A stretch of DNA of 58,537 bases. Origin: Gemmatimonadota bacterium. GTDB lineage: Bacteria; Gemmatimonadota; Gemmatimonadetes; Gemmatimonadales; GWC2-71-9. The notes beneath the pieces were generated by a model that was given only the letters and a program-made list of their open reading frames with translations, had not been told where the DNA came from and made no database searches. The translations under genes and the position numbers were made by a program. Positions within the stretch are counted from its first letter, which is position 1, and every line of letters starts with the position of its first letter. Positions 7,814-25,338 of this stretch are shown here, in pieces. The DNA is taken from the NCBI GenBank assembly GCA_024641735.1, contig JAHECN010000002.1, forward strand, positions 1 to 58,537, in the 5' to 3' direction.

Positions 7814-9109
7814 ATGCGACTGACCTATTCCTCACTGCTGGCGCTGCTGGCGGTTTCCGCCTGTGCGCCGGGCGCGGCCACACCCGATCCCGCCCTCCTC
7901 GATGGCATCGCCCGGCGGTACGTCGTGCTCGCCCTCCAGCTCGGTCACCATGACCCGAGTTATGTCGATGCGTGGTATGGGCCAGATTCGTTGAAGGTGC
8001 TCGCGGATCGGGATACGCTCCCGGTGATGACGATCGCTGCCTCAGCAGACTCGCTCGTCGGCATCCTCGGGACGGCGACGCCGGCCTACGCCGACAGCCT
8101 CGTCGTGATGCGGCACCGCTATCTCCGAACCCAGTTGCAATCGCTCTCCGCACGGGCGGCGATGGTGAATGGCCAGAAGTTCAACTTCGATGAAGAGGCC
8201 CAACGCCTCTATGGCGCGACGCCACCGACCTTCTCTGATGCCCATTTCGATTCGTTGGTGGCCCGGTTGGATCTCTTGCTGCCCGGGAACGGTCCGCTCA
8301 TCGAACGGTACACACGCTTCCGGGCAGGTGTCATGATTCCGGCGGAGTTGGTGGACACCGTCTTCAAGGTGGCAATCGCCGCATGCCGCACACGCACGCT
8401 GGCCTATGCCTCGCTCCCCGCGGGTGAGGGGTTTGCGCTGGAGTATGTGAAGGGCACCCCTTGGAGCGGCTATAACTGGTACAAGGGGAAGGCACAGTCG
8501 TTGATTCAGGTCAATCTCGATTTTCCGATCGCTGTGGAACGCGCGGTCGACTTGGCGTGCCACGAGGGGTACCCGGGACACCATGTGTACAACAGCCGGC
8601 TCGAGGAAGCACTCGTCAACGGGCGCGGTTGGGTCGAGTTTTCCGTCTATCCCCTCTTCTCACCCCAGTCGCTGATTGCGGAAGGGAGCGCCAACTTCGG
8701 CATCGACATGGCATTCCCCGGCGAAGAACGCACCGCATTCGAGCGCGACTCGCTCTTTCCGCTGGCGGGGCTCGACCCAGCGTTGGCGGAACAGAACTCC
8801 GCCGTGCGCGTCGTGATGGAAGAATTGAACTACGGCCGCAACGAGGTCGCTCGCCGGTATCTGGACGGAGTGATTGATTCAACGGCGGCAATCGGCCTGA
8901 TCGAACGGTGGTGGCTGCAGACTCCCGCGGCCGCGGCGAAGACGCTCCGGTTCATCCAGGTCAATCGCAGCTATGTGATCAACTACAACCTGGGACGAGA
9001 TCTTGTCGCCGCGTGGGTCGAGCGGGAGGGTGGGGCGGACCGCGCGGCGCGGTGGCGCGCGTTCAATGCGTTGCTCTCCTCACCACGACTCCCCGCCGAC
9101 CTGCAGTGA
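7814..9109 (+). CDS. Lipoprotein, DUF885-like putative metallopeptidase
   Basis: Signal peptide plus lipobox (LLALLAVSAC). CHEGYPGHH and the downstream AEGSANFG resemble the HExxPGHH / EGWA signature of DUF885 proteins. It is shorter than typical family members. Confidence 0.5.
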   Translation: MRLTYSSLLALLAVSACAPGAATPDPALLDGIARRYVVLALQLGHHDPSYVDAWYGPDSLKVLADRDTLPVMTIAASADSLVGILGTATPAYADSLVVMRHRYLRTQLQSLSARAAMVNGQKFNFDEEAQRLYGATPPTFSDAHFDSLVARLDLLLPGNGPLIERYTRFRAGVMIPAELVDTVFKVAIAACRTRTLAYASLPAGEGFALEYVKGTPWSGYNWYKGKAQSLIQVNLDFPIAVERAVDLACHEGYPGHHVYNSRLEEALVNGRGWVEFSVYPLFSPQSLIAEGSANFGIDMAFPGEERTAFERDSLFPLAGLDPALAEQNSAVRVVMEELNYGRNEVARRYLDGVIDSTAAIGLIERWWLQTPAAAAKTLRFIQVNRSYVINYNLGRDLVAAWVEREGGADRAARWRAFNALLSSPRLPADLQ

Positions 9110-10069: not shown

Positions 10070-11964
10070 TCTGCCTCCGCGGCGAGCAATTCCAGCGCTT
10101 CCCAACGGGTCGTCAAGGTGGCGATCTCCTGGTCGACGGCCGCGAGATCTGCCTTGGCCTTCGCCGCCGCCGCTCCATCGCGGAGCAGGGCCGGATCACT
10201 CAATGCCTCGAAGAGTGCAACGCGCCGTCGTTCCGCGCGGTCGATTCGATCTGGCAACCCGGTCAGCTCCGTCGCTTCCTTGTGGCTGAGGCGCTTCTTG
10301 GGCTTCGGCTTGGGAGCCGTTGGCCCCTTGGACTTCGTGGGCGCGGGGGCACGTTGCGCGAGAATCGCGGCCGCGCGGTGCCGCGCCCAATCCGAATAGC
10401 CCCCAACGTACTCCCCGATGCGTCCGCCACCTTCCATCACCAGGGTGCTGGTCACGACATTGTCGAGGAAGGTCCGGTCGTGGCTCACCACCAACAGCGT
10501 CGCCTTGAGGTCGAGGAGCAGTTCTTCCAACAGGTCGAGCGTTTCGATGTCGAGATCGTTCGTCGGTTCGTCCAGTACCAGCACGTTGAAGCGGCGCGTG
10601 AAGAGTCGCGCCAACAGCAGGCGATTCCGTTCACCGCCCGAGAGCACCTTGATCGGGGTGCGTGCCCGGTCTGGCGAAAAGAGGAAGTCCTGCAGATAGC
10701 CGAGGACGTGTTTGCGCATCCCGTTGATCTCGATGAACTCCGTCCCATCACCGATGCTCTGGACCACCGTCTGTTCGGGGTCGAGCTGTTCGCGCAATTG
10801 GTCGAAGTAGGCGACTTCCAGGTTGGTGCCGTGTCGCACCGTCCCGGTATCCGGCTCGAGTGTCCCGAGCAACAGCCGCAGCAGCGTCGTCTTGCCGGAG
10901 CCATTGGGGCCGATCAAGCCGATGCGGTCGCCGCGCGCGATGGTCGTCGTCAGGTCGCGCACGATCGGACGATCGCCATACGCGAAGCTGACGTCCTTTG
11001 CCTCGAGCACCAGCTTGCCGGAGCGTTCGGCTTCCTGCGCCTGCAGGCGCACGGTCCCAACCCGTTCGCGACGGGCGCTGCGCTCCAGCCGGAGTGCCTC
11101 CAAGGCGCGCACCCGACCTTCGTTGCGCGTCCGTCGTGCTTGAATACCCGTGCGGATCCATACTTCCTCACGCGCGAGCTTCTTGTCGAACTCGGCCCAC
11201 TCTTTCTGCTGCGAGGCGAGCGCGGCTTCCTTCCGTTCGAGATACGTATCGTATCCCGTGCCCCAGTCGATCAACTGCCCGCGGTCGAGGTCCACGATCC
11301 GCGTGGCAACCCGCCGCAGGAAAGTCCGGTCGTGGGTCACAAAGACCAGCGTCGTGCCTCGGGCGATCAGAAACTCTTCGAGCCACTCGACCGCTTCGAC
11401 ATCGAGGTGGTTGGTCGGCTCGTCGAGCAACAGCACGTCCGGCTCGCGCACCAGTGCACGGGCAAGCAGCGCTTGCCGCTTCCGCCCACCGGATGCCTCG
11501 GCAAACGGCGCTTCGGGGTCCAGCGCGAGATGCTCCAGCACTGTCTCCACGCGACTCTTGATCTGCCATGCGTTGGCGGCGTCGAGCGCGTGATGCAGGC
11601 GGTCCAGTTCGGCGAGGGCGGCGTCGCTGTGGTCGGTCACGACGCGATGACTCGCGTGGTGATAGTCGGCGAGGAGTTGCCCCTCGCGGCCGAGACCTTC
11701 CGCCACGATGTCGTACATGGTCCCCGCCACGTCGCCGGGCACCTCTTGTTCGAGCCGTGTGACGGTCACGCCGGTCTGGCGCACGAGCTCGCCGCTGTCT
11801 GGCTGCAGGGAACCATCCAGCAACTTCATGACGGTGCTCTTGCCCGCGCCGTTGCGGCCGAGGAGACAGACACGCTCCCCCCGCTCGATGACGAGGTTGG
11901 CGTCATCGAGAAGGCGGGGGCCGCCGAAAGTGAGCGATACGTCCTGCAGGGCCAGCAATGCCAT
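10066..11964 (-). CDS. uup: ABC-F family ATPase Uup
   Basis: Two ABC cassettes (GRNGAGKST / GPNGSGKTT Walker A; LSGG signatures). The linker EVWIRTGIQARRTRNEGRVRAL is near-identical in pattern to E. coli Uup. Has a C-terminal coiled-coil tail. 632 aa. Confidence 0.85.
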   Translation of the reverse strand: MALLALQDVSLTFGGPRLLDDANLVIERGERVCLLGRNGAGKSTVMKLLDGSLQPDSGELVRQTGVTVTRLEQEVPGDVAGTMYDIVAEGLGREGQLLADYHHASHRVVTDHSDAALAELDRLHHALDAANAWQIKSRVETVLEHLALDPEAPFAEASGGRKRQALLARALVREPDVLLLDEPTNHLDVEAVEWLEEFLIARGTTLVFVTHDRTFLRRVATRIVDLDRGQLIDWGTGYDTYLERKEAALASQQKEWAEFDKKLAREEVWIRTGIQARRTRNEGRVRALEALRLERSARRERVGTVRLQAQEAERSGKLVLEAKDVSFAYGDRPIVRDLTTTIARGDRIGLIGPNGSGKTTLLRLLLGTLEPDTGTVRHGTNLEVAYFDQLREQLDPEQTVVQSIGDGTEFIEINGMRKHVLGYLQDFLFSPDRARTPIKVLSGGERNRLLLARLFTRRFNVLVLDEPTNDLDIETLDLLEELLLDLKATLLVVSHDRTFLDNVVTSTLVMEGGGRIGEYVGGYSDWARHRAAAILAQRAPAPTKSKGPTAPKPKPKKRLSHKEATELTGLPDRIDRAERRRVALFEALSDPALLRDGAAAAKAKADLAAVDQEIATLTTRWEALELLAAEAE

Positions 11965-12066
11965 CAGCGACCAACACCTGGGCTCAGCGTGAGCGCGTGC
12001 GCCATCGCGGCGCGTTGCGGAGCAGGAAGGTAGCGGAGTGGCCCCCCAAGGGCGGTGGTCGGGCGG

Positions 12067-12858
12067 CTACTGGGGAAGCGAGCTGGTTGCCCTAGGTTCT
12101 CCATTCAGCCAGACGCCAAGCGAGAGCGTGCGCTCCCGGGCGGTGTTCTTCCCGGACACGCCACCGTAGTAGCCCGCCTGCAACCCGACGCCCTTCGATA
12201 CCCGGAAGACCGCTGAGCCTCCCAGTTTGGTAGCGCTGTACGCCAAGCCGCCATCCTGAAACGCGGCGACATTGAACGCCTGCGCCATGATGAGGAGACG
12301 TGGCGCGGCGTCGAGGCCCACCGTGAGATCGTAGCGAATCTCTCTCGCGCCGGTGCGCCAGACCGATCCTCCCGCGGCGGCGGACAGGAAGCCGCGACGC
12401 CCGAGAGCTCCAAAGCCGGTGCCATAGAGCAGTCGGAGGTCGGTGTCGCTGCTGACCGGGCCCAGAACCGGACGGGCCTTCGTGTCATAGAGCAGGGGTA
12501 GGTCCACGCGTCCCTGAATGGAGACGATGCCACCGCGTCCTTGGGCGATCCGCTTCATCACGAAGAGGCCCGTGGCGCCAAAGCCCGTGGTCACCTGTGA
12601 GGTCCCGTTGCGCTTGTCTTCAAGGCGCGCAAATCCCTGTCCCATCCCGATGCTCAGGCCGTCGGCCAAGCCGTAGATCGCGTACATCCCCCAATCCAAC
12701 TTCTCGAGTGCATTCTCCGTCGCGCCCGGCCCGCTCGAGAAGCGATCCGGGAAGCGCCCCGAGTTGAACCCATGCGACATGAACCAGCCGCCGGGCTGCA
12801 CGGTCCATTGCGCCGCGAGCGACGCAGGAAGCAGCAGGAGGAGAAGAAACGTCTTCAT
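12067..12858 (-). CDS. Signal-peptide protein, outer-membrane beta-barrel candidate (last gene of the EPS-like locus)
   Basis: MKTFLLLLLLPASLAAQ signal peptide. Alternating hydrophobic/polar G/Y/S-rich segments run throughout. 4-nt overlap with the upstream gene. Confidence 0.45.
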   Translation of the reverse strand: MKTFLLLLLLPASLAAQWTVQPGGWFMSHGFNSGRFPDRFSSGPGATENALEKLDWGMYAIYGLADGLSIGMGQGFARLEDKRNGTSQVTTGFGATGLFVMKRIAQGRGGIVSIQGRVDLPLLYDTKARPVLGPVSSDTDLRLLYGTGFGALGRRGFLSAAAGGSVWRTGAREIRYDLTVGLDAAPRLLIMAQAFNVAAFQDGGLAYSATKLGGSAVFRVSKGVGLQAGYYGGVSGKNTARERTLSLGVWLNGEPRATSSLPQ

Positions 12859-14249
12859 CGCAGCAGTCCTCGAGCAGGAGGGGCAATCGCGGCACTGAAC
12901 CGGACGGGGAGTCGTGGGGCGTTCGGAAGGCGATAGAGCGTGTATCCGCTCCAGCTCCAGTCTTCCACGAACCCGGCCGGTGGGTGTCGCGCCGCATCGA
13001 GGCTCAACCCGTCCGCATCTTCCGTGACCAACACGTACTGGACTGCCTCGCGCGGCATGCCGACCGCGAGATCAAAGCCGATGTCCCGCGTCGTGAGATA
13101 CGCATCGAGCGAAGGGACCCATTTCAGCAGCCCGTCGGCACGCCGATCGTCGACCAGGATGCTCCGCGGTGGCGCAACCGCCAGCGCCTGCGCGACGGCA
13201 CGGTCTCGACGGTCGGCATCACTCGGTGTCGGCAGTGGGATGAACCACCAGGAGGCCACTGCCTGTCCAGCGGCGAGGACGACGAGGGACCAACGCTGGA
13301 GCCGCGATACATCGCGTGGGAGTGCCACGATCGCGACCAGCATCAGCAGCGTCGCCGCGAACGCGAGCGAGAAATGCCATCCGGTTTGTGTTGCGGCGGC
13401 GAGGAGCAGGAACGGCAAGAGCATTCCCGCCGTCGTCGCCTTCGGACGGACGAGCGCCGCCGCGGAGACCACCAAGTACGGAATGGTCCAGCGAAGAAGT
13501 TCGAGGATCGCCGGTGAGTCGCGTTCCCACGGCGTGAAGGGGAATGCCACGCGGCCTGTGAACACCCACGAGAGATAGGCCCACGTGACGGTCGCGGCGA
13601 ATCCCGGGAACACCAGCAATACCATCTGCGAGGCAAACGGCGGGATCTGCAAGCGCGGAAAAAGTACGGGCAGGATCGCGCCGGCAATCAGCGCCAAGCC
13701 GAGACCGAGCGGAGAGCTGTAGAAGGCGAGTCCGAGCCAGAGGCCGGTGTACAGTCCGTGAATCGTGCGCCGCGTGGACCACCAACGGCGGTAATGCCGC
13801 CAGCCGACAAAGAGTGCCGCCAGTCCGAGCGCCTCGTTGAAATTGCCGGCCGTGAAGTGGAGGCCGAGGGGCGTCCAGAGGATGGCGAGCAACAGGAGAT
13901 ATGGCAGAATGGTACGTCGCGAGGTGCACTCGTCGACGACGTACCACGCCAGTCCCATGAGACCGAATGCACCGAGCGCGACGGCCCAGTAGTCGGTTGG
14001 CGAGGGCAACAGGAGCAGGAAGGGGAGCGGCGGGTACTCGAATCCCAACAACTCCAACCGACCACGATCCGCGGCGAATAGCACGCGTTGGATGAAGGCG
14101 CCGTGCGGATCACTGCGCCATCCCTCCCCGATCAGCAACCACGCGGCGACCGCCGGCGGCAGTGCCGCCAGCAGAGCCAGGGTCGCCCGCACCCACCGCG
14201 GCGCGCGCGGCTCAGTGGGTAGCGGCGGCGGGGTGGCGGGTGAGACCAT
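12855..14249 (-). CDS. Polytopic inner-membrane protein with C-terminal soluble domain (GT-C/ArnT-PMT-like suspected), paralog of 18136..19680
   Basis: More than 10 hydrophobic helices are followed by a roughly 110-aa hydrophilic tail. ATG at 14249. 38-nt overlap with the GT2 gene. The tail resembles that of the 514-aa protein by eye. Confidence 0.5.
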   Translation of the reverse strand: MVSPATPPPLPTEPRAPRWVRATLALLAALPPAVAAWLLIGEGWRSDPHGAFIQRVLFAADRGRLELLGFEYPPLPFLLLLPSPTDYWAVALGAFGLMGLAWYVVDECTSRRTILPYLLLLAILWTPLGLHFTAGNFNEALGLAALFVGWRHYRRWWSTRRTIHGLYTGLWLGLAFYSSPLGLGLALIAGAILPVLFPRLQIPPFASQMVLLVFPGFAATVTWAYLSWVFTGRVAFPFTPWERDSPAILELLRWTIPYLVVSAAALVRPKATTAGMLLPFLLLAAATQTGWHFSLAFAATLLMLVAIVALPRDVSRLQRWSLVVLAAGQAVASWWFIPLPTPSDADRRDRAVAQALAVAPPRSILVDDRRADGLLKWVPSLDAYLTTRDIGFDLAVGMPREAVQYVLVTEDADGLSLDAARHPPAGFVEDWSWSGYTLYRLPNAPRLPVRFSAAIAPPARGLLR

Positions 14250-16059
14250 GCGTGGTCTTCTCCCAGTAGTAGGGGCGAGTGAAGAGCTGTCCGAGCGCCT
14301 TGTAGGCCGCGATCGAGTGCAGGACCCAGTAGAACGGATTCAGCAAGGAAAAGAGCACCAGTCCGTGCAATCCCCGCCGGAAGACCGCGAACATGTTGAT
14401 GTAGATCGCCAGGGCATTGCCCAACAGGAGATTGAACAACGAGAGGTACAGAATGATCGGCGGAAAGAGCGGGTCGAGTGCTGTGGTCCGCGTGATGACC
14501 CAGCCAATCGTCAGCAGGACGGAGATGGGTTGGAGCAGGAAGATCAACGGCGTGCCGGCGATCAGCAGGGTGAAGCCGAGTGTTTGGCGGAGCCCAGCGC
14601 GTCGCACCAATCCCATGGGATCGCGCGAGAAGACCAACGCCGTCTGCATATACCCTTTGATCCAGCGCGAACGCTGCCGAATCCAGTTGCCGACGTTCTT
14701 GTTCGCCTCCTCAAAGGTCGTCGAGTTCACGATCCCGACACGGTAGCCGTGCATCGCGGCCCGAATGCCGAGGTCGGCATCTTCGGTGACATTGAATGGG
14801 TCCCAGCCCCCGAGATCGCGCAGCACTTTCGTCTTGAAATGATTGCTGGTGCCCCCGAGCGGAATCGGCATGCGCAACTTGTCGAGCCCAGGGAGCAGGT
14901 AGTCAAACCAGAACGAATACTCGAGGGTAAACATCCGAGTGAGGAAGTTCTCGCTCGCGTTGTAATAGTTCAGCGCGGCCTGCAGGCAGACCAGTTCGGC
15001 TGGCCCACGACGGAAGGCCAACACCGCCTTCTTCAATTGGTCCGACTCGGGTTGATCCTCGGCGTCATAGATCACCAGATACTCACCCAGTGCGAACAGC
15101 AGTCCGACGTTGCAGGCCTTCGGCTTGGTCTGGGGTTGCCCTGCCGGCACCACGAGAATGCGGACGTTGGCCCCTGGCGCGGCGGCTTTCGCGGCGGCGA
15201 GCGTCGAGGGGTCATCTTCTTCCAGCAAGAGCAGGATGTCGAGCTTGTCTGCTGGATAATCCAGCGCCTTGAGGGAGCGGAGCAGCTGGGGCAATACCGC
15301 AGCTTCCCGGTAGGCGGGGACGAGGATGCTGTAGATCGGCAGATCGCGCTCGTCGAGTGCTCGGAGCTCGTCGGCGGTGACCGAGACCGTCGTTTCGGAG
15401 GCCGCGCCGCTGATGCCAACCACCGTCCGGAAGATGATGACGGTGAGAAAGAAGATGGTGATCGGGACATTGATCGCCAGAAGGGTCGCGTACGGCGCGG
15501 ACCAGAGCCCAGCCAGAACCAGGATGATCAACGCGCCGAAGAGCACGTACTGCGGCAATGTGAACACCGTGAAGGCGGATTCGGACTGGTCCCGGAAGTA
15601 GAGGCCGTAGATCGAGGCGTCGACGACCTTCCGCCGATTCGCGAGTCCAATCGCCTGGTCGATGTCCCATTCCGTGGTGACGCGAATGTCCAGCGTCCGG
15701 CCGGGATACACCACGGCCAAGGTCTCACGTAATTCGGCAGTGGGAGCGTCGGCCACGGCAACGGTGAGCGTCGTGCCGTCGTCGCGCAGTGGCACGGCGC
15801 GGAAGCGCATCGTGGCATCGAGCGGGAAGCGTTGCGCCACCGCAGGGACCAGCGCCGTGTCGGTGATCGTGATGAACGGCAGGTTCCAGAGATCCGCCAA
15901 GGCCCGACCGAGGTCGAGTCGACGAATGAATCCCAGAATCAACAGCAATCGACCAAGCCGCTCGCCGGTCCGCTCCTGTTGCTGGAGCGCGACGGCGAGC
16001 TGTTGCTCAGTGATCAGACCTCGCTGGACGAGGTATTCACCCAGCCGGATCGAGCTCAC
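14212..16059 (-). CDS. Processive family-2 glycosyltransferase (synthase) with N-terminal MshEN / T2SSE_N c-di-GMP-binding domain
   Basis: GTG start at 16059. Residues 5-57 form a tandem 24-aa MshEN motif: RLGEYLVQRGLITEQQLAVALQQQ - ERTGE - RLGRLLLILGFIRRLDLGRALADL. GT2 motifs are YDAEDQ, TEDADLG and QRSRW. There are 2 TM helices before the catalytic domain and about 4 after it. Confidence 0.85.
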   Translation of the reverse strand: MSSIRLGEYLVQRGLITEQQLAVALQQQERTGERLGRLLLILGFIRRLDLGRALADLWNLPFITITDTALVPAVAQRFPLDATMRFRAVPLRDDGTTLTVAVADAPTAELRETLAVVYPGRTLDIRVTTEWDIDQAIGLANRRKVVDASIYGLYFRDQSESAFTVFTLPQYVLFGALIILVLAGLWSAPYATLLAINVPITIFFLTVIIFRTVVGISGAASETTVSVTADELRALDERDLPIYSILVPAYREAAVLPQLLRSLKALDYPADKLDILLLLEEDDPSTLAAAKAAAPGANVRILVVPAGQPQTKPKACNVGLLFALGEYLVIYDAEDQPESDQLKKAVLAFRRGPAELVCLQAALNYYNASENFLTRMFTLEYSFWFDYLLPGLDKLRMPIPLGGTSNHFKTKVLRDLGGWDPFNVTEDADLGIRAAMHGYRVGIVNSTTFEEANKNVGNWIRQRSRWIKGYMQTALVFSRDPMGLVRRAGLRQTLGFTLLIAGTPLIFLLQPISVLLTIGWVITRTTALDPLFPPIILYLSLFNLLLGNALAIYINMFAVFRRGLHGLVLFSLLNPFYWVLHSIAAYKALGQLFTRPYYWEKTTHGLTRHPAAATH

Positions 16060-18106
16060 GCCGCACCACCCTCGGGTAGAACCACACGAGAAGGCCGACG
16101 ATCAGCAGCCCCGCCAAAATGAAGAGAACCGTGCGATAGCGCGCCCACCAACTGGCAGCGTTTTCGGGGAGTTGCTCCAGCCGCCATCCCGCGTTCGCCA
16201 ACGTCAGCGATCGTGCTGGGCCATCGACGCCGCGGATCACCAGGTCGCCGCGTGTGCCGAACCAGCCGTAGGGTGCGAGGGTTTCGTCGAGCAACTGGAG
16301 CAGCGGGGCACCCTCTGCGCCGGTGTGGTGGAGCAGGAGAATGTCGCGGCCACCGGCAGACCATCCCTGCATCGTCGCATAGGTTGTGCTGGGCGAGAAT
16401 TCGTCCCAGACCTTGCCGTCACGATCCCGCAGACGGAAGCCATCGGAATGAATTGGCGCCTCAAGGACATCCGCGAGATGACTGGTCCCAATTGCCAGGA
16501 GTGGACCGACGGCCTCTCCCGCGTCCCGTGCCACCGCGGGTGCGAGCGGAGTGCGCGTGGTCTGCTGCATCGCGCCGATCGTCTGGGCCGCCAATTCCAC
16601 GCGGAAGCGATCCATTGGATCGAGTAGCACCGAGAACGCGGGGATGTACGCGGACGGGAAGCGACCGAAGCCCGGAGGGAGGGCATTGGCGCGATCCGTC
16701 ACAAACGAGGACGAGGGGTCGATCGTCGCAGTGAACACCGCACCACCCAACACGCAGGCACCCTCGCCGAGAACCACCTGGAATCGCACTTCGAGCACAT
16801 TGTCGCGCAGCAGCAGGTGCGACGGGAGGGGAACCACGACGTCGAGGGACGAGCGTTCAAGGGTTCGGGAGTAGACGAGCGCGCCGTTGAGATGCACACG
16901 CAACGATCCGTTGCCAGCCGGCGGCAAGACGGAGTGCTGTACCACGAGCCGGAGCGCCGAGGGGATCGTCGTCCCTCCGAGGTCGGCGAGGGCGAACGGG
17001 TATGCGGCACTCATCAGTGTCGCCCCTTCGACGGTGCGACTCGGGAAGCCAAGCGTCTCGAACGTCACCGTCCCGGCACCACCGACCGGAGCATTGTGGT
17101 CGAGCGAAGCGGTCGTCCCGCTGAACCCGGGAGCGGCCACGACGGCATCGCCATCGGCGAGCGTGAAGAGCTGCCTGGCATCACGCCGTGCGGCGATCGC
17201 GAGCATGGTGCCCGCGGAACTATCCGAGCGCAGGAGTTCCGTGGTCCCGGTCGGCGACCAGACCAGGGCGCGCGCAAAGGGCCCCGGCTCCGTCATCGGT
17301 GTGCCAGCCGGCGGAAGAGGGCGAATGAGGAACTTGGTGCTCATGCCGCGATAGCGGCGCCCCATGAACGCGGACGCATCCAGCGCGGCTTGTGCGGCGT
17401 CGCGGCTTGGCAGGTCGGCGACGTAGAACGTGACCGATTCGAGCCAGGGCTCGAAGAATCCATTGACCGTCGTGGGCGGCCGCGGTGCACCGCTATAGGT
17501 GATCGCGCTCGACGGATCGATGACCGTGCGATAGTACCGCTGCGCCTCGCACACATCCCGGCCCGGCACCATCAGTCCGAGCGTGAGCGTCGCACGCCCA
17601 TCATCCGCGCGAATCTGCTGCAGCGGAAGCGAGAGCGACGAGGTGGTGTCCGTCAGCGCGCGCTGCGCCAGAATCCGGTCGCGCTGCATCAGCACGAGGG
17701 TCGCAGCGGGCATCCCTGGAGTCGGAATGAGGCGCAATTCCAAAGCGGTCGGTGTCAGCCCGCTGTTGACGGGAAGCGTGATTGTGGCCTGGTCAGAAGA
17801 GCCATTGAGCGTGAATCCGGATGCGTAGCCGATGTCTTGGAGCGAGAGGGTCAAGGCCGTTGACTCGGTGGTGAGCCAGTCACTGGCAAGCCCACGGGGG
17901 CTCGGGCGGTACTCGCCGCTCCCGTTTCCGCCGCTGTCAACGCGTGCTGGCGCCGCTGCGGCAAGCGAATCAACGACTGCTGGGGTCGGAGCCGCCGGTA
18001 CGTCGACTTGCTCCGTGTCGGGCCCTTGGCCGCACGCTGCGAGGATGGTGAGCCCTGTCATCAGGGTCGCCAAGGGAATCCGCATTGGGTTCATTCGCGT
18101 CTGCAT
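16037..18106 (-). CDS. Periplasmic lipoprotein with single C-terminal TM anchor, BcsB-like synthase partner (putative)
   Basis: Start placed at ATG 18106, after the strong RBS GGAGGAAGG. MQTRMNPMRIPLATLMTGLTILAAC signal with lipobox. About 640 aa periplasmic, with two similar ...L..L.V.LNG... modules. C-terminal TM VLFILAGLLIVGLLVWF. 23-nt overlap with the synthase gene. Confidence 0.55.
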   Translation of the reverse strand: MQTRMNPMRIPLATLMTGLTILAACGQGPDTEQVDVPAAPTPAVVDSLAAAAPARVDSGGNGSGEYRPSPRGLASDWLTTESTALTLSLQDIGYASGFTLNGSSDQATITLPVNSGLTPTALELRLIPTPGMPAATLVLMQRDRILAQRALTDTTSSLSLPLQQIRADDGRATLTLGLMVPGRDVCEAQRYYRTVIDPSSAITYSGAPRPPTTVNGFFEPWLESVTFYVADLPSRDAAQAALDASAFMGRRYRGMSTKFLIRPLPPAGTPMTEPGPFARALVWSPTGTTELLRSDSSAGTMLAIAARRDARQLFTLADGDAVVAAPGFSGTTASLDHNAPVGGAGTVTFETLGFPSRTVEGATLMSAAYPFALADLGGTTIPSALRLVVQHSVLPPAGNGSLRVHLNGALVYSRTLERSSLDVVVPLPSHLLLRDNVLEVRFQVVLGEGACVLGGAVFTATIDPSSSFVTDRANALPPGFGRFPSAYIPAFSVLLDPMDRFRVELAAQTIGAMQQTTRTPLAPAVARDAGEAVGPLLAIGTSHLADVLEAPIHSDGFRLRDRDGKVWDEFSPSTTYATMQGWSAGGRDILLLHHTGAEGAPLLQLLDETLAPYGWFGTRGDLVIRGVDGPARSLTLANAGWRLEQLPENAASWWARYRTVLFILAGLLIVGLLVWFYPRVVRRELDPAG

Positions 18107-18135
18107 CGGTCCTTCCTCCGTTCCGTCATGCGGCC

Positions 18136-19680
18136 TCAACGACGCCGCCAGATCTCCAGTCCACCCTCAGCAAATCGTCGTTCAAATCGTTCCTGAAAAG
18201 CGACCCGGTCCACGATCGCCTCGGTCACCACGTTCGGTTGGGCTCGAGTATCTACGACCACCCAATCCACGACCTCTTCCGGTGTCGCCAAAGCTGCTGG
18301 CCCAAGCTCCCACGACCAGCTGTAGATCCGATCGCGCAGCGCGATCCGGCTTCGCGGCGAGATGTTGACCATCTGGTCGACCAGAACCCGCCCCCCGTCG
18401 TACTCTGCCGCCAGCCAATCCGACGCGTGTTGCTGGCGCGGATCACCGTCGCGGATTGCCAATCCCTCGCGCAGGGCGCCAATGTGGGCGGTCCCCGCAT
18501 AGCTCCAGAGGCCGAATTGGGCCACGATCACTGCTCCAAGAGCGAGGAGCGTGCCCCGTTGCCAGATTCCGCCACGCCGGAGGCCTCGGGATGCCACCAG
18601 GGCGATCGCGACGGCCACGGCGGGCAGGAGCATCACCCCGTAGCGCAGGTTGGCGACTCCCGGTGGGACGCTCCAGGGAAGGGAGATCGCGCTCTGGCCG
18701 CCCCAGAGGGCAAGGATGTTGAACGGCAGGGCGGCGAAGAGGAGAAGTGCCCCAGCAAAGCGCCGGGAGTGTCGCAGGAGTACGAGGATGGCCAGGAGCC
18801 CAACAACGGTCAGGAGCATCCCCACCGTCAGCCCGGTCGCGCCGAGGTAGGTGGTCGTGGCCAGCAGGGGATGGCCCTTGGTGGGCAGGAGGCCCTGCGC
18901 GGCCAAAGCCGTTTGCTGGCTCTGGGCGGACCACGCACCGCGCTGAAATTCGAGTGCGTCCCCGAAGTAATAGGCGTTGTACCCCAGCCACGCGGCGACC
19001 ATCGCGGCGCTCGGCCACGCAAACCGCCAGGAAGCCCGGAACCACCCCGTCCTGCGGGCGTGGGCCACCCAGGCCACGACCGGGACCGCGATCACCACGT
19101 AGAACCAGCCATCATATCGAGAGCCGACCGCCATCGCTGCCAGCACCCCCGACCACCGGAGGGCACGCGCACTGCCGTCCTCGGCCCAGCGATCAAGCGC
19201 CGCGACAGAGGTTGTCATGAACGCCAGGAGCAGCGGCTCCGTCATCCCGGTGGACTGGAGGTAGAGCAGACTGGGGTTCGCGACGACCAGCAGGGTGCCG
19301 ACCCAGGCAAGCTTGGGATGACCCGTCCGTCGAACCAGGAGATCGTGCACGGCGGCTGCGGTCGCCATGAAGGCGCAAATTCCGAGGATGCCACCGGCGA
19401 CGCCGTTCCACCACCAGGCGTCAACCATCGTGAACGGAATCATCAGGAGGTGCGGAACGGGGAGCCAGACGGTCCCGAGCATCTGGATGCCGGGGGTCAA
19501 GGAGTCGGTGACCCGCCGGGCGATATCAAGGTGCGCCTGCGCGTCCCAAAAGGCGAAGACCACACCCGCTTGATGCGCCCAGATCTGGGCCACGAGGCCG
19601 AGCACAAACGCAACGAGGCCGGCCATCATGGCCGGCCTCAATGAGCCGTGTGCCTCCACGGAGTTGGTCGGTTCAGACAT
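18136..19680 (-). CDS. Polytopic inner-membrane protein with C-terminal soluble domain (GT-C/ArnT-PMT-like suspected)
   Basis: ATG at 19680. About 12 hydrophobic helices. The first loop contains FWDAQAHLD. The hydrophilic C-terminal roughly 110 aa resemble the tail of 12855..14249. 8-nt overlap with the PEP-CTERM gene. Confidence 0.5.
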   Translation of the reverse strand: MSEPTNSVEAHGSLRPAMMAGLVAFVLGLVAQIWAHQAGVVFAFWDAQAHLDIARRVTDSLTPGIQMLGTVWLPVPHLLMIPFTMVDAWWWNGVAGGILGICAFMATAAAVHDLLVRRTGHPKLAWVGTLLVVANPSLLYLQSTGMTEPLLLAFMTTSVAALDRWAEDGSARALRWSGVLAAMAVGSRYDGWFYVVIAVPVVAWVAHARRTGWFRASWRFAWPSAAMVAAWLGYNAYYFGDALEFQRGAWSAQSQQTALAAQGLLPTKGHPLLATTTYLGATGLTVGMLLTVVGLLAILVLLRHSRRFAGALLLFAALPFNILALWGGQSAISLPWSVPPGVANLRYGVMLLPAVAVAIALVASRGLRRGGIWQRGTLLALGAVIVAQFGLWSYAGTAHIGALREGLAIRDGDPRQQHASDWLAAEYDGGRVLVDQMVNISPRSRIALRDRIYSWSWELGPAALATPEEVVDWVVVDTRAQPNVVTEAIVDRVAFQERFERRFAEGGLEIWRRR

Positions 19681-20422
19681 CCCGTGCTGCTGCGAGGCGA
19701 CGCTTCTTCCGCGCGGCCGCGAGTCCGATCAGGCCACTCCCCAGCAGGGTCATCGTGGCGGGCTCGGGAACGACTTCGGTCGGCGGCGAGATGTCGTCGG
19801 GGCGAAGAGTAAAGATCGCGTTGTCAAAGTCCCAGTCGCTGTGCTCGTAGCCGACGTCCTCGAATCCGAACGCAAGCAATCCCTGGGTTCCGGGAATGAT
19901 GCCAACCCCTTGGTTTCCGGCGACACCAGCTGTCCCGAAATATGCCACGTGGGCGAGTTGGTCGTAGTTGCGCGTCGGATCACCGGAGAAGAACCAGAGC
20001 CAGTTGTTGTTCATGTTGACCTGCAACCCGAAAATCACTTCCGTGCCGGGCGTCCACGCGAGCGTGTAGGTCTGCGGTGCCGTCGGGGTCGGGAGGTCGA
20101 GATAGGGGTTGGTGTACGCGCCATAATTCTTCGTGAACATCGCCGTCCCGCCGGAGCAACTGCCGCCAGCCCACGCAAAGCAGGTTCCGCCCGATGCATT
20201 GGCCGAGAATTCAGCCGCCGTGAAGGCCCATACCGTGTGCCCATAGACGGTCGTGTTCTCCCACCCGAAGTAGGAGACGAAGAGGGAGCTCCCAGCGGCG
20301 AGAATCGGACTGCTCATTCCGAAGGTTGGTCCGAACAGTTTGGGATGGTCAGCGCGCAACGGGCCAGCCAGCGTCAGCAGCGCCACGAAGGCGAGCGAGA
20401 TTCGGGTTGTCATGGTACGCAT
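19673..20422 (-). CDS. PEP-CTERM sorting-signal protein with DUF4114-like domain
   Basis: Start placed at ATG 20422 (GAGG 6 nt upstream; MRTMTTRISLAFVALLTLAGPLRA signal). The C-terminus VPEPATMTLLGSGLIGLAAARKKRR is a PEP motif plus TM plus Arg/Lys cluster. The preceding FGFEDVGYEHSDWDFDNAIF resembles DUF4114. Confidence 0.8.
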   Translation of the reverse strand: MRTMTTRISLAFVALLTLAGPLRADHPKLFGPTFGMSSPILAAGSSLFVSYFGWENTTVYGHTVWAFTAAEFSANASGGTCFAWAGGSCSGGTAMFTKNYGAYTNPYLDLPTPTAPQTYTLAWTPGTEVIFGLQVNMNNNWLWFFSGDPTRNYDQLAHVAYFGTAGVAGNQGVGIIPGTQGLLAFGFEDVGYEHSDWDFDNAIFTLRPDDISPPTEVVPEPATMTLLGSGLIGLAAARKKRRLAAARDV

Positions 20423-20630: not shown

Positions 20631-21917
20631 CTATTTCCCATCAGCCGAGGCGTCCAGAACACGGCGGACTGCATCGATGTCTGGCGTGATGCGGATCGGG
20701 CGATTCGCCCACGCTGGTGGGGGCTCCATCTCCTGGTGCATCAGCTTCAGGACCCCGGAGTCCTTCAGTACGTGCCCCGTCAGGACCCCAACCACCTGAT
20801 CTCCTGGGCGAATGACCCCCTGCTCCCTGAGCTTCCTGACGCCAGCGACGGTGGCGGCACTGGCCGGTTCACATCCGACGCCTGCCCGGTCGATCACCGC
20901 CTTTGCCTCCAGGATTTCGGCATCGGTCACGGAGCAGACCACCCCATCGGTCGCCCGGATGGCCCGGACACCGCGTTCGTAGCTGGCCGGTGCGCCGATC
21001 TTGATGGCGGTCGCCACCGTCTCGGCGGCCATCGGCTCCAGATGATCAAAGCCACGAGCGAAGGCCCGGGCGAAAGGCGACGCCCCCTCCGCCTGAATCG
21101 CCGCGAGGCGTGGGAGTCGTGAGATCAATCCCCACGCGTGTGCTTCCGCGAGCGCTTTCCCGAAGGCCGAGGTGTTTCCGAGATTCCCGGCCGGAAAGAC
21201 AACCCAGTCCGGGACGGTCCAGTCTAGTTGCATCAGCATCTCGAGGACGATCGTCTTTTGTCCCTCGAGTCGGAACGGATTGATCGAATTGAGCAGGTAG
21301 ATCCCCAGCGCGTCGCTCGCCTCCTCGACCAAGCGCAGGCAGGCGTCGAAGTCACCCGGCACCAGCAAGGTTCGCGCGCCGTAGGCGAGTGACTGGGTCA
21401 GCTTGCCGATCGCGATCTGTCCTTCCGGAACAAAGACCAGCGCGGGGAGCCCGGCCTGTGCAGCGTAGGACGCAAGTGAGGCGGACGTGTTTCCGGTCGA
21501 GGCACACGCCACCGCGCGCGCGCCAATGCGCGCAGCTTGGGTCACGCCGACCGTCATGCCGCGGTCCTTGAAGGAGCCGGTCGGGTTGTGCCCCTCGTGC
21601 TTGAGCAGCAGGGAATCGATATCTGCCCACGCACTGATCGCGGGACGAGAGAGCAGGGGGGTATTGCCTTCTGGGTGTGTGACGGCGGTCGCCGTGGCGG
21701 TCGGCAGCACGATCTCCCCGAAGCGCCACACCCCGGAGGAGTGCCTATTGTCGGCGGTCCCGAATCGCGCGCGCAGTTCGGTGGGTGTCCCAACGGGTGG
21801 CGTATGGACGATCGCCAGCAAGCCGCCGCATTCCCGACAACGCGGCGACGCGTCGCGTTCATCGAACTCTGCGCCACAGGCGTCACAGCGCTGCCAACTC
21901 TTGCGTTCCGTGGTCAC
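20631..21917 (-). CDS. thrC: Threonine synthase
   Basis: N-terminal Cys4 ribbon (CDACG...CRECGG). PLP-lysine motif NPTGSFKDRG. 4-nt overlap with thrB. Confidence 0.9.
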   Translation of the reverse strand: MTTERKSWQRCDACGAEFDERDASPRCRECGGLLAIVHTPPVGTPTELRARFGTADNRHSSGVWRFGEIVLPTATATAVTHPEGNTPLLSRPAISAWADIDSLLLKHEGHNPTGSFKDRGMTVGVTQAARIGARAVACASTGNTSASLASYAAQAGLPALVFVPEGQIAIGKLTQSLAYGARTLLVPGDFDACLRLVEEASDALGIYLLNSINPFRLEGQKTIVLEMLMQLDWTVPDWVVFPAGNLGNTSAFGKALAEAHAWGLISRLPRLAAIQAEGASPFARAFARGFDHLEPMAAETVATAIKIGAPASYERGVRAIRATDGVVCSVTDAEILEAKAVIDRAGVGCEPASAATVAGVRKLREQGVIRPGDQVVGVLTGHVLKDSGVLKLMHQEMEPPPAWANRPIRITPDIDAVRRVLDASADGK

Positions 21918-22837
21918 ACTTCCCTCGCCCCGTGATGGTCGACTCGCGCGATGCGTCCCTGACTCGGCATTCCCGCCTCGGTATAGGCCGCGGTCATGGC
22001 AGCGAGGACCCGCGCCCCAATCGCATCGTCCTCCACCAGTGCAAACGCCGTCGGTCCGGCGCCACTGATGGAGCCACCTAGGGCGCCTGCGGCCAGTGCC
22101 GCGTCCTGGGCCTCTGCAAAGCCCGGGAGCAGCGGTGCCCGCGCCGGTTCCGCGATGCGATCAGAAATGCCACGCCCCAGCAGTGCCAGATCGCCGAGAC
22201 ACGCGCCGGCCACCATGGCCGCAACATGCGCCGCCTGATGGAGTGCGATCTCTCGGGAGACGACGTCAGGGAGCACCGCGCGCGCATCGCGTGTCTTCAT
22301 CTGTTGCGCTGGGTGGACCAATACGACGCGAAGGTGATCCGGGATCGGCAACCGAATGACGTCCATCGGTTCCACGCTTCGAACCAAAACCAAGCCACCA
22401 AGCAGTGACGGTGCGAGGTTGTCCGCGTGTCGTCCCGCCACGGTGGCCTCGGCCTCCATCGCGCACTCGAGCAACGCCGCGGTGTCGAGCGCGGCCTTGG
22501 CGAGGAGGTTGGCGGCCACGGCGCCGGCGACGGCAGAGGCAGCGCTCCCGCCCTGTCCCCCGGACAGCGGCAGTCCCTTCTCGATCCGGAGTGCAATCCC
22601 GCGCGCGATCCCTGCGCGGCGCAGGACGGCCGCCGCGGCGATCGCGGCCGTGTTGCGACTCGGGTCGGTCGGGAGCTCCGGATGTCCGGCGTCGAGAACC
22701 ACGAGCGCGCCACCAGTATGCCACTCGGCGTGCACCGTATCCCCGCGCCCTGCGATGGCGAGGCCAAGGATGTCGAGCCCTGGTCCGACATTCCCGACAG
22801 ATCCGGGTGCGAAGACCGAGACATGGTTGGCGCTCAT
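21914..22837 (-). CDS. thrB: Homoserine kinase (GHMP kinase)
   Basis: VFAPGSVGNVGPGLDILG N-terminus. GHMP motif GLPLSGGQGGSAASAVA. 4-nt overlaps with thrA and thrC. Confidence 0.85.
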   Translation of the reverse strand: MSANHVSVFAPGSVGNVGPGLDILGLAIAGRGDTVHAEWHTGGALVVLDAGHPELPTDPSRNTAAIAAAAVLRRAGIARGIALRIEKGLPLSGGQGGSAASAVAGAVAANLLAKAALDTAALLECAMEAEATVAGRHADNLAPSLLGGLVLVRSVEPMDVIRLPIPDHLRVVLVHPAQQMKTRDARAVLPDVVSREIALHQAAHVAAMVAGACLGDLALLGRGISDRIAEPARAPLLPGFAEAQDAALAAGALGGSISGAGPTAFALVEDDAIGARVLAAMTAAYTEAGMPSQGRIARVDHHGAREV

Positions 22838-25338
22838 CCGGCGAGGGCTCGCAAGTCCGCCAGGACCCCGGTGGCCGTGACGGCCGGTCCGGCACCCGGG
22901 CCTGTGATGATGAGTGGCGAGTCATGGTACCGATCGGAGGTGATGACCATCTGATTGGCCGCTCCCTGCAATTGTCCGAGCGAGGAGGCACGCGGGACCG
23001 CGCGCAACCCGACTTCAATCGTACGCGGCGTGACCGTGGCGACATAGCGCAGCACGCAGTCATCGCGGCGCGCGGTCGCGACGCGCGCGGCCCACCAGTC
23101 GTCGTCGCGATCGAGTCCGGCAAGCCACTTCTCGACGCTCAGTGATGTCCCACGCCGCACCAGCGATTCAGGCGCGAGGGTGTCGAATTCTCGCGTCTGT
23201 CCAAGGAGCCGCGCCAGAATCAGTGCCTTCCGCGCGACGTCCATCCCACTCAAGTCGTCACGAGGGTCCGGTTCGGTGTAGCCGCGGGCCAGCGCGTCGC
23301 GCACTGCTGCGGAGAACGGCGTGCCCCCTTCGAGTGCACTCATCACGACACCCAGTGTGCCGGAAAGGCACCCTTCAATGCGCCGGACCGTGTCATCGGT
23401 GCCGGTCAATTGCTCGATCGCGGCGATCGTCGGCAAGCCAGCTCCGACGGTCGCCTCGAATCGCAGGGCACCGCCGCGCGCCGCGATCGCGTCCTTGAGC
23501 GCGGCGACGTCACGCATCGGCGCGGCGAGGGGCTTCTTGTTGGCCAGTACCACATCGAACCCGGCGTCGGCGGCGACGCGGAGCAGGGCCGTCGTGTCAT
23601 CCGCGGTGACGTCGGCGATAATGGGCCGAACGAGCGCACGCTGCGTCAGGTCGTTCAGAATTTCGCGTGGCGTTCCGGTGCGCGCCCCAGGAAGCTCATG
23701 GATCGGCGTGCCGGCACGCTTCGCCGCGGCGATGGCGATCAGCTCATCACGGGTCAGTCCTTCCGGCGCGATGCGGGCCCCGCGGCGATCGACCACGGCG
23801 ACTATGCGCAATCGTGCGAAACGATCGGCGTGCTGGGCGAGCAGGTCCAGGACGGCACAGCCGATCGTTCCGGCGCCAAGGAGGACGACGTCGCGGCCGG
23901 CACTTCGGCGTGGGCGACCTCCCCCCTGTTTGCCAAGCTGGAAGGTGTCGTGGATGGCACGCAACGCCCTCGAGATGGATCGTTCGTCGATGGCGATCGA
24001 GATGTTGCGCTCGCTCGAGCCCTGAGCGATCGCGATGACGTTGACGGCACTGTCCGCAAGCGCGTCGAAGACACGTGCCGCGATGCCGGGGTGACCCGCC
24101 ATCTGATCACCGACCACCGCGATGATGGCGATGCGGCCTCGGACTTCCACGCCGTTGATCTCGCCATGCCGAATCTCATGCTTGAAGGCGCGGCGCAGTG
24201 CCTGCACGGCGTCGGACGACGTCGAGGCTGGCACCGTGATGTCGATGGTGTATTCGGATGAGGCCTGCGCGATCATCGAGATCGAGATATTGGCATCTTG
24301 CAGCGCCTCGAACATCCGTGCCGCGATCCCCGGGACGCCGAGCATGCCGGAGCCGGAGATGGTGAGGAGCGCCTGATCCTGCACCGCTGACAGGGCGCGG
24401 ACCGGGGAGCGGTCGGCGTCACGCCGTGGAGAGATCTCGGTGCCGGCGGCCTCCGGGTCCGCGAACGGGCGCACGAAGAGTGGAATCCGCCGACCGATCA
24501 GCGGGAGCAGCGCGCGCGGGTGCAACACCTTGGCACCGTAGTAGGCGAGTTCCGCAGCTTCCTCGAGATGCACGTGCGGCAACAGTCTCGCGTCGGGCAC
24601 GACGCGCGGATCCGCGGTCAGCAGACCAGGGACATCCTTCCAGAGTGTGATAGCCTGTGCCTCAAGCACGCGGCCAAGCAAGGTCGCCGTGAGATCCGAA
24701 CCGCCGCGACCGAGTGTGGTGGTCCCATCATCGAATGCGCGGCCGAGGAATCCAGGTACGACCGGCGTGACGCCTCGGGCGAGCAGCGGCGTGAGCGCGC
24801 GTCGCGCGGCGCGGCGCGTCCCATCCATGTTGGGCACGGCGCTGCCATACGGGCCGTCGGTGAGAATCACATCGTTCGGGTCAATGCAGCGCGCGTCGTG
24901 GTCCGCGGCGATCAACGCGGCCGTCATCATGAGTGCCGAAAGTCGTTCGCCTCGCGCCAGGATGTGATCACGGACGCGCGGTGAGGCTTCGCGCAGCACG
25001 GCGAGCGAACGCGCCAACGCCACGAGCTCATCAGAGGCTGTCGCGATGGCTTCCGCCGTTGGCCCGCGATCCTTTCGGGGCAGTAGCGCGTCGAGCACGC
25101 TCGCGTGTCGTGCGCGGAAGGTCTCCGCAAGGGCGGTTGCCGCTTCGGCGTCGCCCCGTGTGGCACTTTCGACAATTCCGAGCAAAAGGTCGGTAATTCC
25201 GGCCAGCGCAGACACGACAACGACCCGCGGCGCGGGTTGGCTTGCGATAATCGTGACCGCACGGCGGATCGCCGCTGCATCGGCGACCGAAGCGCCGCCG
25301 AATTTGTGGATGCTGGGGCGGGGGTGGCGAGTGGGCAT
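22834..25338 (-). CDS. thrA: Bifunctional aspartokinase / homoserine dehydrogenase
   Basis: 834 aa. Kinase motif KFGGASV, ACT repeats, then a homoserine dehydrogenase domain (VVLLGAGTIG..., ...LSGTLG...). Confidence 0.9.
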   Translation of the reverse strand: MPTRHPRPSIHKFGGASVADAAAIRRAVTIIASQPAPRVVVVSALAGITDLLLGIVESATRGDAEAATALAETFRARHASVLDALLPRKDRGPTAEAIATASDELVALARSLAVLREASPRVRDHILARGERLSALMMTAALIAADHDARCIDPNDVILTDGPYGSAVPNMDGTRRAARRALTPLLARGVTPVVPGFLGRAFDDGTTTLGRGGSDLTATLLGRVLEAQAITLWKDVPGLLTADPRVVPDARLLPHVHLEEAAELAYYGAKVLHPRALLPLIGRRIPLFVRPFADPEAAGTEISPRRDADRSPVRALSAVQDQALLTISGSGMLGVPGIAARMFEALQDANISISMIAQASSEYTIDITVPASTSSDAVQALRRAFKHEIRHGEINGVEVRGRIAIIAVVGDQMAGHPGIAARVFDALADSAVNVIAIAQGSSERNISIAIDERSISRALRAIHDTFQLGKQGGGRPRRSAGRDVVLLGAGTIGCAVLDLLAQHADRFARLRIVAVVDRRGARIAPEGLTRDELIAIAAAKRAGTPIHELPGARTGTPREILNDLTQRALVRPIIADVTADDTTALLRVAADAGFDVVLANKKPLAAPMRDVAALKDAIAARGGALRFEATVGAGLPTIAAIEQLTGTDDTVRRIEGCLSGTLGVVMSALEGGTPFSAAVRDALARGYTEPDPRDDLSGMDVARKALILARLLGQTREFDTLAPESLVRRGTSLSVEKWLAGLDRDDDWWAARVATARRDDCVLRYVATVTPRTIEVGLRAVPRASSLGQLQGAANQMVITSDRYHDSPLIITGPGAGPAVTATGVLADLRALAG

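Follow-up and report, generated by a model that had tools for sequence, protein, structure and literature searches.

A probable Xag/Sfz-type exopolysaccharide locus with a Gemmatimonadota-specific two-gene module

A 58,537-nucleotide stretch of contig JAHECN010000002.1 (assembly GCA_024641735.1) from a Gemmatimonadota bacterium, referred to here as the window, contains a compact block of six minus-strand genes, named G1 to G6 in the order of transcription. The block is probably the form taken in Gemmatimonadales by the Xag/Sfz-type synthase-dependent exopolysaccharide systems, which have been described in Xanthomonas (xag) and in iron-oxidizing bacteria (sfz). Its core consists of a BcsB-like protein (G3), a synthase of the XagB/Sfz2 type (G4), a membrane protein of the XagC/Sfz3 type (G5) and a candidate outer-membrane barrel of the XagA/Sfz5 type (G6). 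Homologs of G4 gave at least 550 matches in species-representative genomes, several of them labelled "glycosyltransferase XagB" by the Joint Genome Institute, and iterated profiles of the other five proteins were mapped onto 160 loci fetched around G4 homologs. All counts of loci given below refer to this set, whose members are numbered with the prefix L.

Organization of the locus

The six genes and the features located within or between them are as follows:

19673..20422, minus strand: G1, opening gene of the block, encoding a secreted PEP-CTERM protein that has a DUF4114-type domain
19697..19771, minus strand: PEP-CTERM sorting signal of G1 (aa 218-242, VVPEPATMTLLGSGLIGLAAARKKRR), matched by Pfam and NCBIfam
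18136..19680, minus strand: G2, 514-aa polytopic membrane protein, divergent paralog of G5/XagC
18111..18119, minus strand: Shine-Dalgarno sequence GGAGGAAGG in the 29-nt gap between G2 and G3, 5 bases before the ATG of G3 (18106)
16037..18106, minus strand: G3, BcsB-like periplasmic partner of the synthase, equivalent to Sfz1
14212..16059, minus strand: G4, XagB/Sfz2-type MshEN and GT2 synthase
15889..16047, minus strand: tandem 24-residue motifs in G4 (aa 5-57) predicted to bind c-di-GMP (cyclic diguanylate), matched by NF053729
12855..14249, minus strand: G5, XagC/Sfz3-type polytopic protein with a predicted GT-C fold
12067..12858, minus strand: G6, small outer-membrane beta-barrel candidate, equivalent to XagA/Sfz5

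An open reading frame (ORF) check of the window, which has a G+C content of about 65%, returned the six ORFs and the junctions that had been described in a first-pass annotation of this DNA. G1 and G2 overlap by 8 nt (shared letters ATGTCTGA), G3 and G4 by 23 nt, G4 and G5 by 38 nt, and G5 and G6 by 4 nt. The 29 nt between G2 and G3 form the single intergenic gap of the block, and the ribosome-binding site previously noted in this gap was found at 18111-18119. A consensus scan for sigma-70 promoters and terminators inside the block revealed none above shuffle expectation, and the absence of such internal signals would be compatible with one transcript. An alternative start of G1 at the ATG at 20437 is possible, the reading frame being open up to 20548. 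The block is preceded by thrC, about 200 nt upstream, and followed by a gene encoding an ABC-F ATPase.

At 19614-19640, the minus strand contains a GC-rich hairpin, TGAGGCCGGCCATGATGGCCGGCCTCG, which is perfect over 12 bp and has a T-rich stretch behind it. The hairpin is situated within G2, about 40 nt from its 5' end, and spans the codons for Met18 and Met19. Since the orthologs of G2 align only from about residue 15, this hairpin could mark the true start of G2. Alternatively, it could serve between G1 and G2 as an attenuation or translational element.

The synthase G4 and its MshEN module

G4 consists of an N-terminal MshEN domain, two transmembrane helices, a GT2 domain and C-terminal transmembrane helices, and it ends about 10 residues after the last helix. 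Both MshEN and GT2 were assigned by Pfam, which gave no PilZ match in G4 at E up to 0.1, and the motifs YDAED(Q), TEDAD(LG) and QRSRW were found in the GT2 region. Among GT2 structures, a family profile built from 32 sequences matched BcsA of Escherichia coli and of Rhodobacter best (E 2.5e-17), with profile positions 193-542 aligned to BcsA 227-578, i.e. through the membrane region. The AlphaFold model of G4, with a predicted local distance difference test score (pLDDT) of 87.3 and a predicted template modelling score (pTM) of 0.86, has BcsA (E 3e-14) and hyaluronan synthases as its nearest folds in the PDB (range E ~1e-14 to 1e-12), and the non-processive PcManGT ranked below both. Identity between G4 and BcsA in the structural alignment is about 17%. 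Pfam, NF053729 and the BcsA-like profile and fold thus all agree with the earlier description of G4 as an MshEN and GT2 synthase with these three motifs.

The N-terminal module was matched by NF053729, the curated NCBI model of the c-di-GMP motif, with 57.9 bits against a cut-off of 38. The hallmark of MshEN, a pair of 24-residue motifs with a 5-residue linker between them and with conserved R, G, Leu-triad and Q residues, is present in G4 except for the Q of motif 2. Residues important for the c-di-GMP motif have been named in Vibrio cholerae MshE (PMC5013675), and 9 of these 10 are kept in G4, by register.

A separate observation concerns XagB of the Bacteroidota genera Mucilaginibacter and Pedobacter (L054:10001-11818 and L073:10001-11791), in which the R-L-G residues of both MshEN repeats are lost. 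The GT2 part of these proteins is highly conserved despite the degenerate MshEN motifs, and c-di-GMP control may have been lost in this phylum.

Partner proteins encoded in the block

The BcsB model of Pfam matched G3 with 30.3 bits (cut-off 21) and was found in 25 of the 26 members of the G3 family, the profile of which aligned with E. coli BcsB (6yg8) over about 380 positions at E 7.6e-16. G3 has the lipoprotein signal LAAC, the lipobox is kept in its orthologs, and a C-terminal hydrophobic segment (aa 655-682) forms its single predicted transmembrane anchor. These lines of evidence agree with one another, and the proposal that G3 is a BcsB-like lipoprotein with a C-terminal transmembrane segment was upheld.

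G5 has no match in Pfam, PMT and PMT_2 included, although 3 of the 29 members of its family (XagC) match PMT_2. Its AlphaFold model, built on a shallow alignment of 43 sequences, reached a pLDDT of 84.5 and a pTM of 0.86 and shows a small C-terminal periplasmic domain. In a Foldseek search of the PDB with this model, the top 19 matches were all GT-C proteins (STT3, AftA, PglB, ArnT, DPY19 and Emb), with TM-scores of about 0.5, probabilities of 0.91-1.0 and modest E-values of 3e-4 to 0.35. Comparison of the XagC family profile with PDB sequences gave no meaningful match. The family is of modest size, comprising about 1043 clusters at 50% identity (E <= 1e-3; 1.84 billion representatives), and a second database search with a cross-phylum XagC alignment again returned mostly Gemmatimonadales. 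Judged from the model, XagC/Sfz3 has a GT-C fold.

G2 and G5 had been described as GT-C-like paralogs. Pairwise BLASTP of the two proteins found nothing (E 2.6), and their kinship is visible at the profile level only: in an hhalign profile-profile comparison, G2 matched the XagC family with a probability of 99.1% and E 9e-19 over 416 columns. Together with the GT-C matches of G5 in Foldseek, this bears out the description. G2 itself scored 20.7-21 bits (E ~3e-4) with the Pfam models PMT and PMT_2, under their cut-offs of 22.7 and 26.1. In the G2 family, an invariant WDAQAHLD...D motif follows the first transmembrane helix, and D46, D52 and D59 are invariant. Two GT-C copies per locus were seen in Gemmatimonadota only.

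G6 has a signal peptide and the size expected of an XagA/Sfz5-type protein (about 260-340 aa), and its family profile matched a solved outer-membrane barrel (PDB 4rl8) at E 3e-5. Three of the 21 members of the family also match Phenol_MetA_deg of Pfam, the best at 2e-12. The family profile and these matches favour the earlier view of G6 as a small-barrel candidate; on their evidence, G6 is distantly related to COG4313/Phenol_MetA_deg barrels, and XagA/Sfz5 belongs to a family of predicted small outer-membrane barrels.

The PEP-CTERM signal of G1 was recognized by Pfam (30 bits, cut-off 20.7) and by TIGR02595 of NCBIfam (20.9 bits, cut-off 16). DUF4114 was detected in 8 of the 11 members of the G1 family, the copy in the window itself being without a match, and the domain carries the motif FGFEDVxYxxSDWDFDN. 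The assignment of G1 to PEP-CTERM proteins of the DUF4114 family was thus sustained. Ten orthologs of G1 lie upstream of G2 in Gemmatimonadales loci, and the family profile found nothing in the PDB. One Gemmatimonadales metagenome-assembled genome encodes, about 6 kb downstream of the cluster, a second, far more divergent PEP-CTERM protein (L014:19820-20368) with 28% identity to G1 and without the FGFEDV...SDWDFDN motif.

Distribution across bacterial phyla

The same six genes in the same order were found in about 11 Gemmatimonadales genomes, so that the gene order put forward by the first-pass annotation also passed a conservation check. The full order is present in L002-L007 and L014, and L001 and L008-L010, which are truncated by contig ends or fragmented, agree as far as they reach. 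The cassette G3-G4-G5, with or without G6, was seen in 14 named phyla, in some of them in part only. G3-G4-G5 occurs in Gemmatimonadota, Chloroflexota, Rhodothermota, Aquificota, Desulfobacterota, Thermotogota, Synergistota, Negativicutes, Cyanobacteriota, Bacteroidota and Pseudomonadota, while the single loci from Ignavibacteriota and Acidobacteriota contain part of the cassette. Because the order recurs in other Gemmatimonadales and the core in many phyla, the block is not a chance pattern of ORFs.

G6 accompanies G3-G4-G5 in most of the diderm groups sampled and was found in none of the sampled Actinomycetota or Chloroflexota loci, as predicted for an outer-membrane component. Actinomycetota contain G4-G5 only: neither the BcsB-like gene nor the barrel gene was found in any of 27 actinobacterial loci (e.g. 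L043, L058, L031), and an XagC-like gene lies directly downstream of XagB in 17 of the 25 with enough flanking sequence. Since the BcsB-like and barrel genes are missing there and the XagC-like gene is usually kept, the minimal unit appears to be the synthase plus the GT-C-fold protein. In most phyla G5 is likewise located downstream of the synthase and is its constant neighbour. G1 was found in Gemmatimonadota only.

XagB proteins are unusually conserved, at 44-86% identity across phyla, and they therefore probably share one product, which would be ecologically common. The spread and strong conservation of this cassette, the fold assignments for XagC and XagA/Sfz5 and the restriction of the G1-G2 module to Gemmatimonadota make the system worth attention.

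Directly upstream, the same strand carries thrA-thrB-thrC (window 20631-25338), and the position of thrB-thrC is kept in all Gemmatimonadales loci with enough flanking sequence (L002-L010, L014). Conservation of the downstream ABC-F gene is limited to some of these loci.

Relation to characterized systems

The xag cluster directs an "uncharacterised polysaccharide" required for biofilm formation in Xanthomonas campestris (Xcc), where its transcription is de-repressed by c-di-GMP via Clp (PMC3528676). In X. oryzae pv. oryzicola (Xoc), deletion of xagA or xagB reduces biofilm (PMC3609779). The genes xagABCD are co-regulated in Xanthomonas, and their expression rises with c-di-GMP (PMC3609779, PMC3528676). 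Roelofs et al. (2015) predicted that the xagABC operon encodes its own c-di-GMP receptor (PMC4624772), and the predicted MshEN module of XagB fits this prediction. In the literature library that was searched, no biochemical characterization or structure of the Xag polymer was found.

XagB of Xanthomonas is a full-length ortholog of G4 with about 44% identity and the same MshEN and GT2 domains. The G6 profile matched the gene in the position of xagA at 4e-45, and the G5 profile gave a weak match (~1e-12) to XagC. The order in Xanthomonas is xagA (G6-like), xagB, xagC (weakly G5-like) and xagD (GH113 by Pfam). Unlike the Gemmatimonadales locus, the xag cluster thus has the barrel gene first and includes the GH113 hydrolase XagD; it lacks a BcsB-like gene adjoining xagB, a second GT-C paralog and a gene for a PEP-CTERM protein.

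The closest arrangement to the G3-G4-G5-G6 core is found in the sfz/sfb cluster of Mariprofundus and Ferriphaselus, published as the bcsB-xagBCD or sfz1-5 stalk-formation cluster of iron oxidizers (PMC4643136, PMC8250860; L087, L093, L095-L111). Loci of Ferriphaselus R-1 and Mariprofundus PV-1 were among those retrieved. The order there is BcsB-like (Sfz1), XagB (Sfz2), XagC (Sfz3) and GH113 (Sfz4), followed in Mariprofundus by the G6-like Sfz5, the position of which matches the G6 profile at ~1e-14. G4 aligns over its full length with XagB/Sfz2 of Xanthomonas, Ferriphaselus and Mariprofundus at 44-47% identity. The sfz cluster differs in having the GH113-type Sfz4 and an SH3-CotH protein (Sfz6) and in lacking G1 and G2, and its functional link is correlative, from the comparison of stalk-forming with stalk-less genomes. 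Its authors took the N-terminal domain of the synthase as EpsE-like, i.e. of the type II secretion system, and left Sfz3 and Sfz5 unassigned. The present analysis adds to the xag and sfz papers the recognition of this N-terminal domain as a canonical MshEN module, the predicted GT-C fold of XagC/Sfz3 and the probable barrel family of XagA/Sfz5, the latter two assignments being absent from those papers.

The hydrolase XagD/Sfz4, which had been named GH10 in the sfz paper, is GH113 by Pfam (L096:10130-11098, E 8e-32; L081:10349-11365, E 1e-43). Pseudomonadota were the only phylum in which it was found, with 43 of their 80 loci containing it. A tblastn search of the whole window with two XagD proteins gave nothing better than E 0.16. 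In the gammaproteobacterial locus L081, a gene of the alkaline-phosphatase superfamily (Phosphodiest/Sulfatase/Metalloenzyme; 11369-12316, minus strand) lies between the XagD and barrel genes and, by analogy with BcsG, may encode a polymer-modifying enzyme.

BcsA-BcsB provides the nearest solved structures for G4 and G3. It is a c-di-GMP-activated processive GT2 enzyme with its own channel, and its partner is anchored by a C-terminal transmembrane helix. The receptor in Bcs is a C-terminal PilZ domain, whereas the receptor module of G4 is the N-terminal MshEN. The Gemmatimonadales locus also has no BcsC porin with tetratricopeptide repeats (TPR), no BcsZ and no BcsG, and contains an obligatory GT-C-fold neighbour.

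E. coli NfrB, of the phage N4 receptor glycan system, has been shown experimentally to be an MshEN-gated, c-di-GMP-activated GT2 exopolysaccharide synthase (PMC8669469). This precedent makes outdated the first-pass statement that characterized systems sense c-di-GMP only by way of PilZ or I-site receptors. NfrB has its GT2 domain at the N-terminus and MshEN at the C-terminus, the reverse of G4, and its partners are the TPR-barrel protein NfrA and YbcH, as opposed to the BcsB-like, GT-C and small-barrel proteins of G4. The NfrB model reached 45 bits on G4 against a cut-off of 1170, and its best-scoring stretch covers MshEN only. Filing of the locus under the Nfr system was rejected because of the reversed domain order and this low score.

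The further claim that the locus has no characterized equivalent did not survive these comparisons, since G6, G4 and G5 correspond to the biofilm-required XagA, XagB and XagC (PMC3609779, PMC3528676) and G3 to G6 to Sfz1, Sfz2, Sfz3 and Sfz5. Close homologs belonging to a characterized system were found for the G3-G6 core, in xag and sfz, and were not found for G1 and G2. By sequence comparison, the G1-G2 module is the only lineage-specific part of the locus, the core being already known as xag/sfz.

Proposed function and its uncertainties

The BcsA-like G4, the BcsB homolog G3 and the barrel candidate G6 support the original view of the block as a synthase-dependent locus of the exopolysaccharide type. 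Considering homology, folds and co-occurrence, the following scheme can be proposed. G4 (XagB), in the inner membrane, would polymerize a nucleotide sugar on the cytoplasmic face and thread the chain through its own transmembrane channel, as BcsA and hyaluronan synthase do, its processivity being suggested by homology and fold. Binding of c-di-GMP to MshEN would switch the enzyme on and replace the PilZ domain of BcsA, in keeping with the conservation of the motif and the precedent of NfrB. The lipoprotein G3, with its C-terminal transmembrane anchor, would partner the synthase and guide the chain in the periplasm, and G5 may handle or modify the nascent chain at the periplasmic face, which is the weakest step of the mechanism. 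The polymer would then leave through G6, the putative outer-membrane exit. G1 and G2 would constitute a Gemmatimonadota-specific add-on, most likely supplying a protein of the matrix or cell surface that either carries glycans or binds the polymer.

Features of the relatives hint at a beta-1,4-mannan-like chain as the product. GH113 enzymes are listed in CAZy as beta-mannanases, and the hydrolase attached to this family in proteobacterial loci, XagD, is of this type (43 of 80 loci, as above). In addition, ManA, a beta-1,4-mannanase, is implicated in the dispersal of Xcc biofilm (PMC3528676), and a phosphomannose isomerase gene adjoins sfz (PMC8250860). If the product is indeed such a mannan, XagB would be a bacterial counterpart of the plant CslA mannan synthases.

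Several observations weigh against parts of this interpretation. The terminal Gln of motif 2 (the equivalent of MshE Q61) is Leu57 in G4, which lies outside the published relaxed motif; from the sequence, binding of c-di-GMP by G4 is likely despite this Leu. GT-C enzymes usually place a catalytic Asp or Glu in the first periplasmic (extracytoplasmic) loop. In the XagC/G5 family, no acidic residue of this loop is conserved at >=75%, and the only conserved acidic residue is D367 in the C-terminal domain. The lack of a conserved acidic residue in the loop suggests that G5 may be non-catalytic. G1 and G2 appear tied to the system mainly by coupling, paralogy and synteny within one order, where thrBC is equally syntenic, and no exosortase was found among the 20 large ORFs of the window that were scanned. 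Finally, neither GH113 nor sugar-nucleotide genes were found in the window by tblastn and the ORF scan, and the mannan proposal is therefore borrowed from distant relatives.

A bolder version of the Xag/Sfz-type reading, which we regard as doubtful, would make the Xag machinery a separate, so far unrecognized class among synthase-dependent secretion systems. Its members would combine an MshEN-gated BcsA-like synthase with an obligatory GT-C partner, a COG4313-like barrel in place of the TPR-porin and a product of the beta-1,4-mannan type. In Gemmatimonadota, G2 would then link or glycosylate G1 and so tie the polymer to an exosortase-sorted protein.

Alternative explanations

It is improbable that the locus is a divergent cellulose synthase operon, in which equivalents of BcsA and BcsB would make beta-1,4-glucan with the help of other accessory proteins. 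Although the solved structures closest to G4 and G3 are those of BcsA and BcsB, and the CelA model of NCBIfam matches G4 weakly (E 3.5e-14), the score of G4 with this model (TIGR03030) was 51.8 bits where the cut-off is 699, and that with PRK11498 was 37.6 (cut-off 992). XagB proteins resemble one another across phyla far more closely (44-86% identity) than G4 resembles BcsA (about 17%). None of the six proteins has a PilZ, TPR or GH8 match, and the neighbours are thrABC and the ABC-F ATPase gene, so that the locus has no BcsC or BcsZ. The hydrolase attached to the family is also of GH113 and not of GH8. Furthermore, Ferriphaselus carries a separate bcsABZ cluster and bcsC beside its xag-like cluster (PMC4643136).

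Slightly less probable still is a three-component glycosylation system comparable to GtrB/GtrC, ArnC/ArnT or CsbB/YfhO, in which G4 would charge polyprenyl phosphate and G5 or G2 would transfer the sugar onto a glycan or a protein such as G1. The pairing of a GT2 protein with GT-C proteins is what marks systems of this kind, the matches of G4 include PcManGT, a mannosyltransferase of the polyprenyl-phosphate type, and G2, with its weak PMT/PMT_2 similarity, adjoins G1. However, PcManGT was outranked by BcsA and the hyaluronan synthases in the fold search, and the QRSRW and TED motifs of G4, the two transmembrane helices that precede its GT domain and the several that follow it, and the alignment of G4 with BcsA through the transmembrane region all speak for a BcsA-like enzyme. 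A BcsB partner and an outer-membrane barrel suit a secreted polymer rather than the transfer of a lipid-linked monosaccharide, and the block contains no flippase-like gene. For the G1-G2 add-on by itself, a glycosylation role could still apply.

That the six genes are neighbours merely by inherited synteny and do not form one functional unit is very improbable: the equal conservation of the flanking thrB-thrC does make gene order within Gemmatimonadales weak evidence when taken alone, but the genes are linked at four junctions by start/stop overlaps and at the fifth by a 29-nt gap containing a strong ribosome-binding site, G3-G4-G5 and G6 co-occur across the 14 named phyla in otherwise unrelated contexts, and xagABCD are co-regulated in Xanthomonas (PMC3609779).

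Possible roles and other genes of the window

For the Xag/Sfz-type system as a whole, candidate roles include biofilm formation in soils and sediments, aggregation of Xanthomonas and possibly the stalks of iron oxidizers. The Gemmatimonadales form, with its extra GT-C protein and PEP-CTERM protein and no hydrolase, may be viewed as a natural experiment.

A scan of the window genes for diguanylate cyclase, exosortase and sugar-nucleotide genes revealed only housekeeping and peptidase genes. At 32786-35542, the window encodes a 918-aa protein with PIG-L (GlcNAc-PI de-N-acetylase family) and NPCBM-associated NEW3 domains, which may be a secreted carbohydrate deacetylase and has no link to the locus. 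For two further sizeable ORFs, at 7814-9109 (431 aa) and 40609-41805 (398 aa), Pfam gave no match at E <= 1e-5. Counterparts of the first, with 67-73% identity, lie near the locus in L002, L005 and L010.

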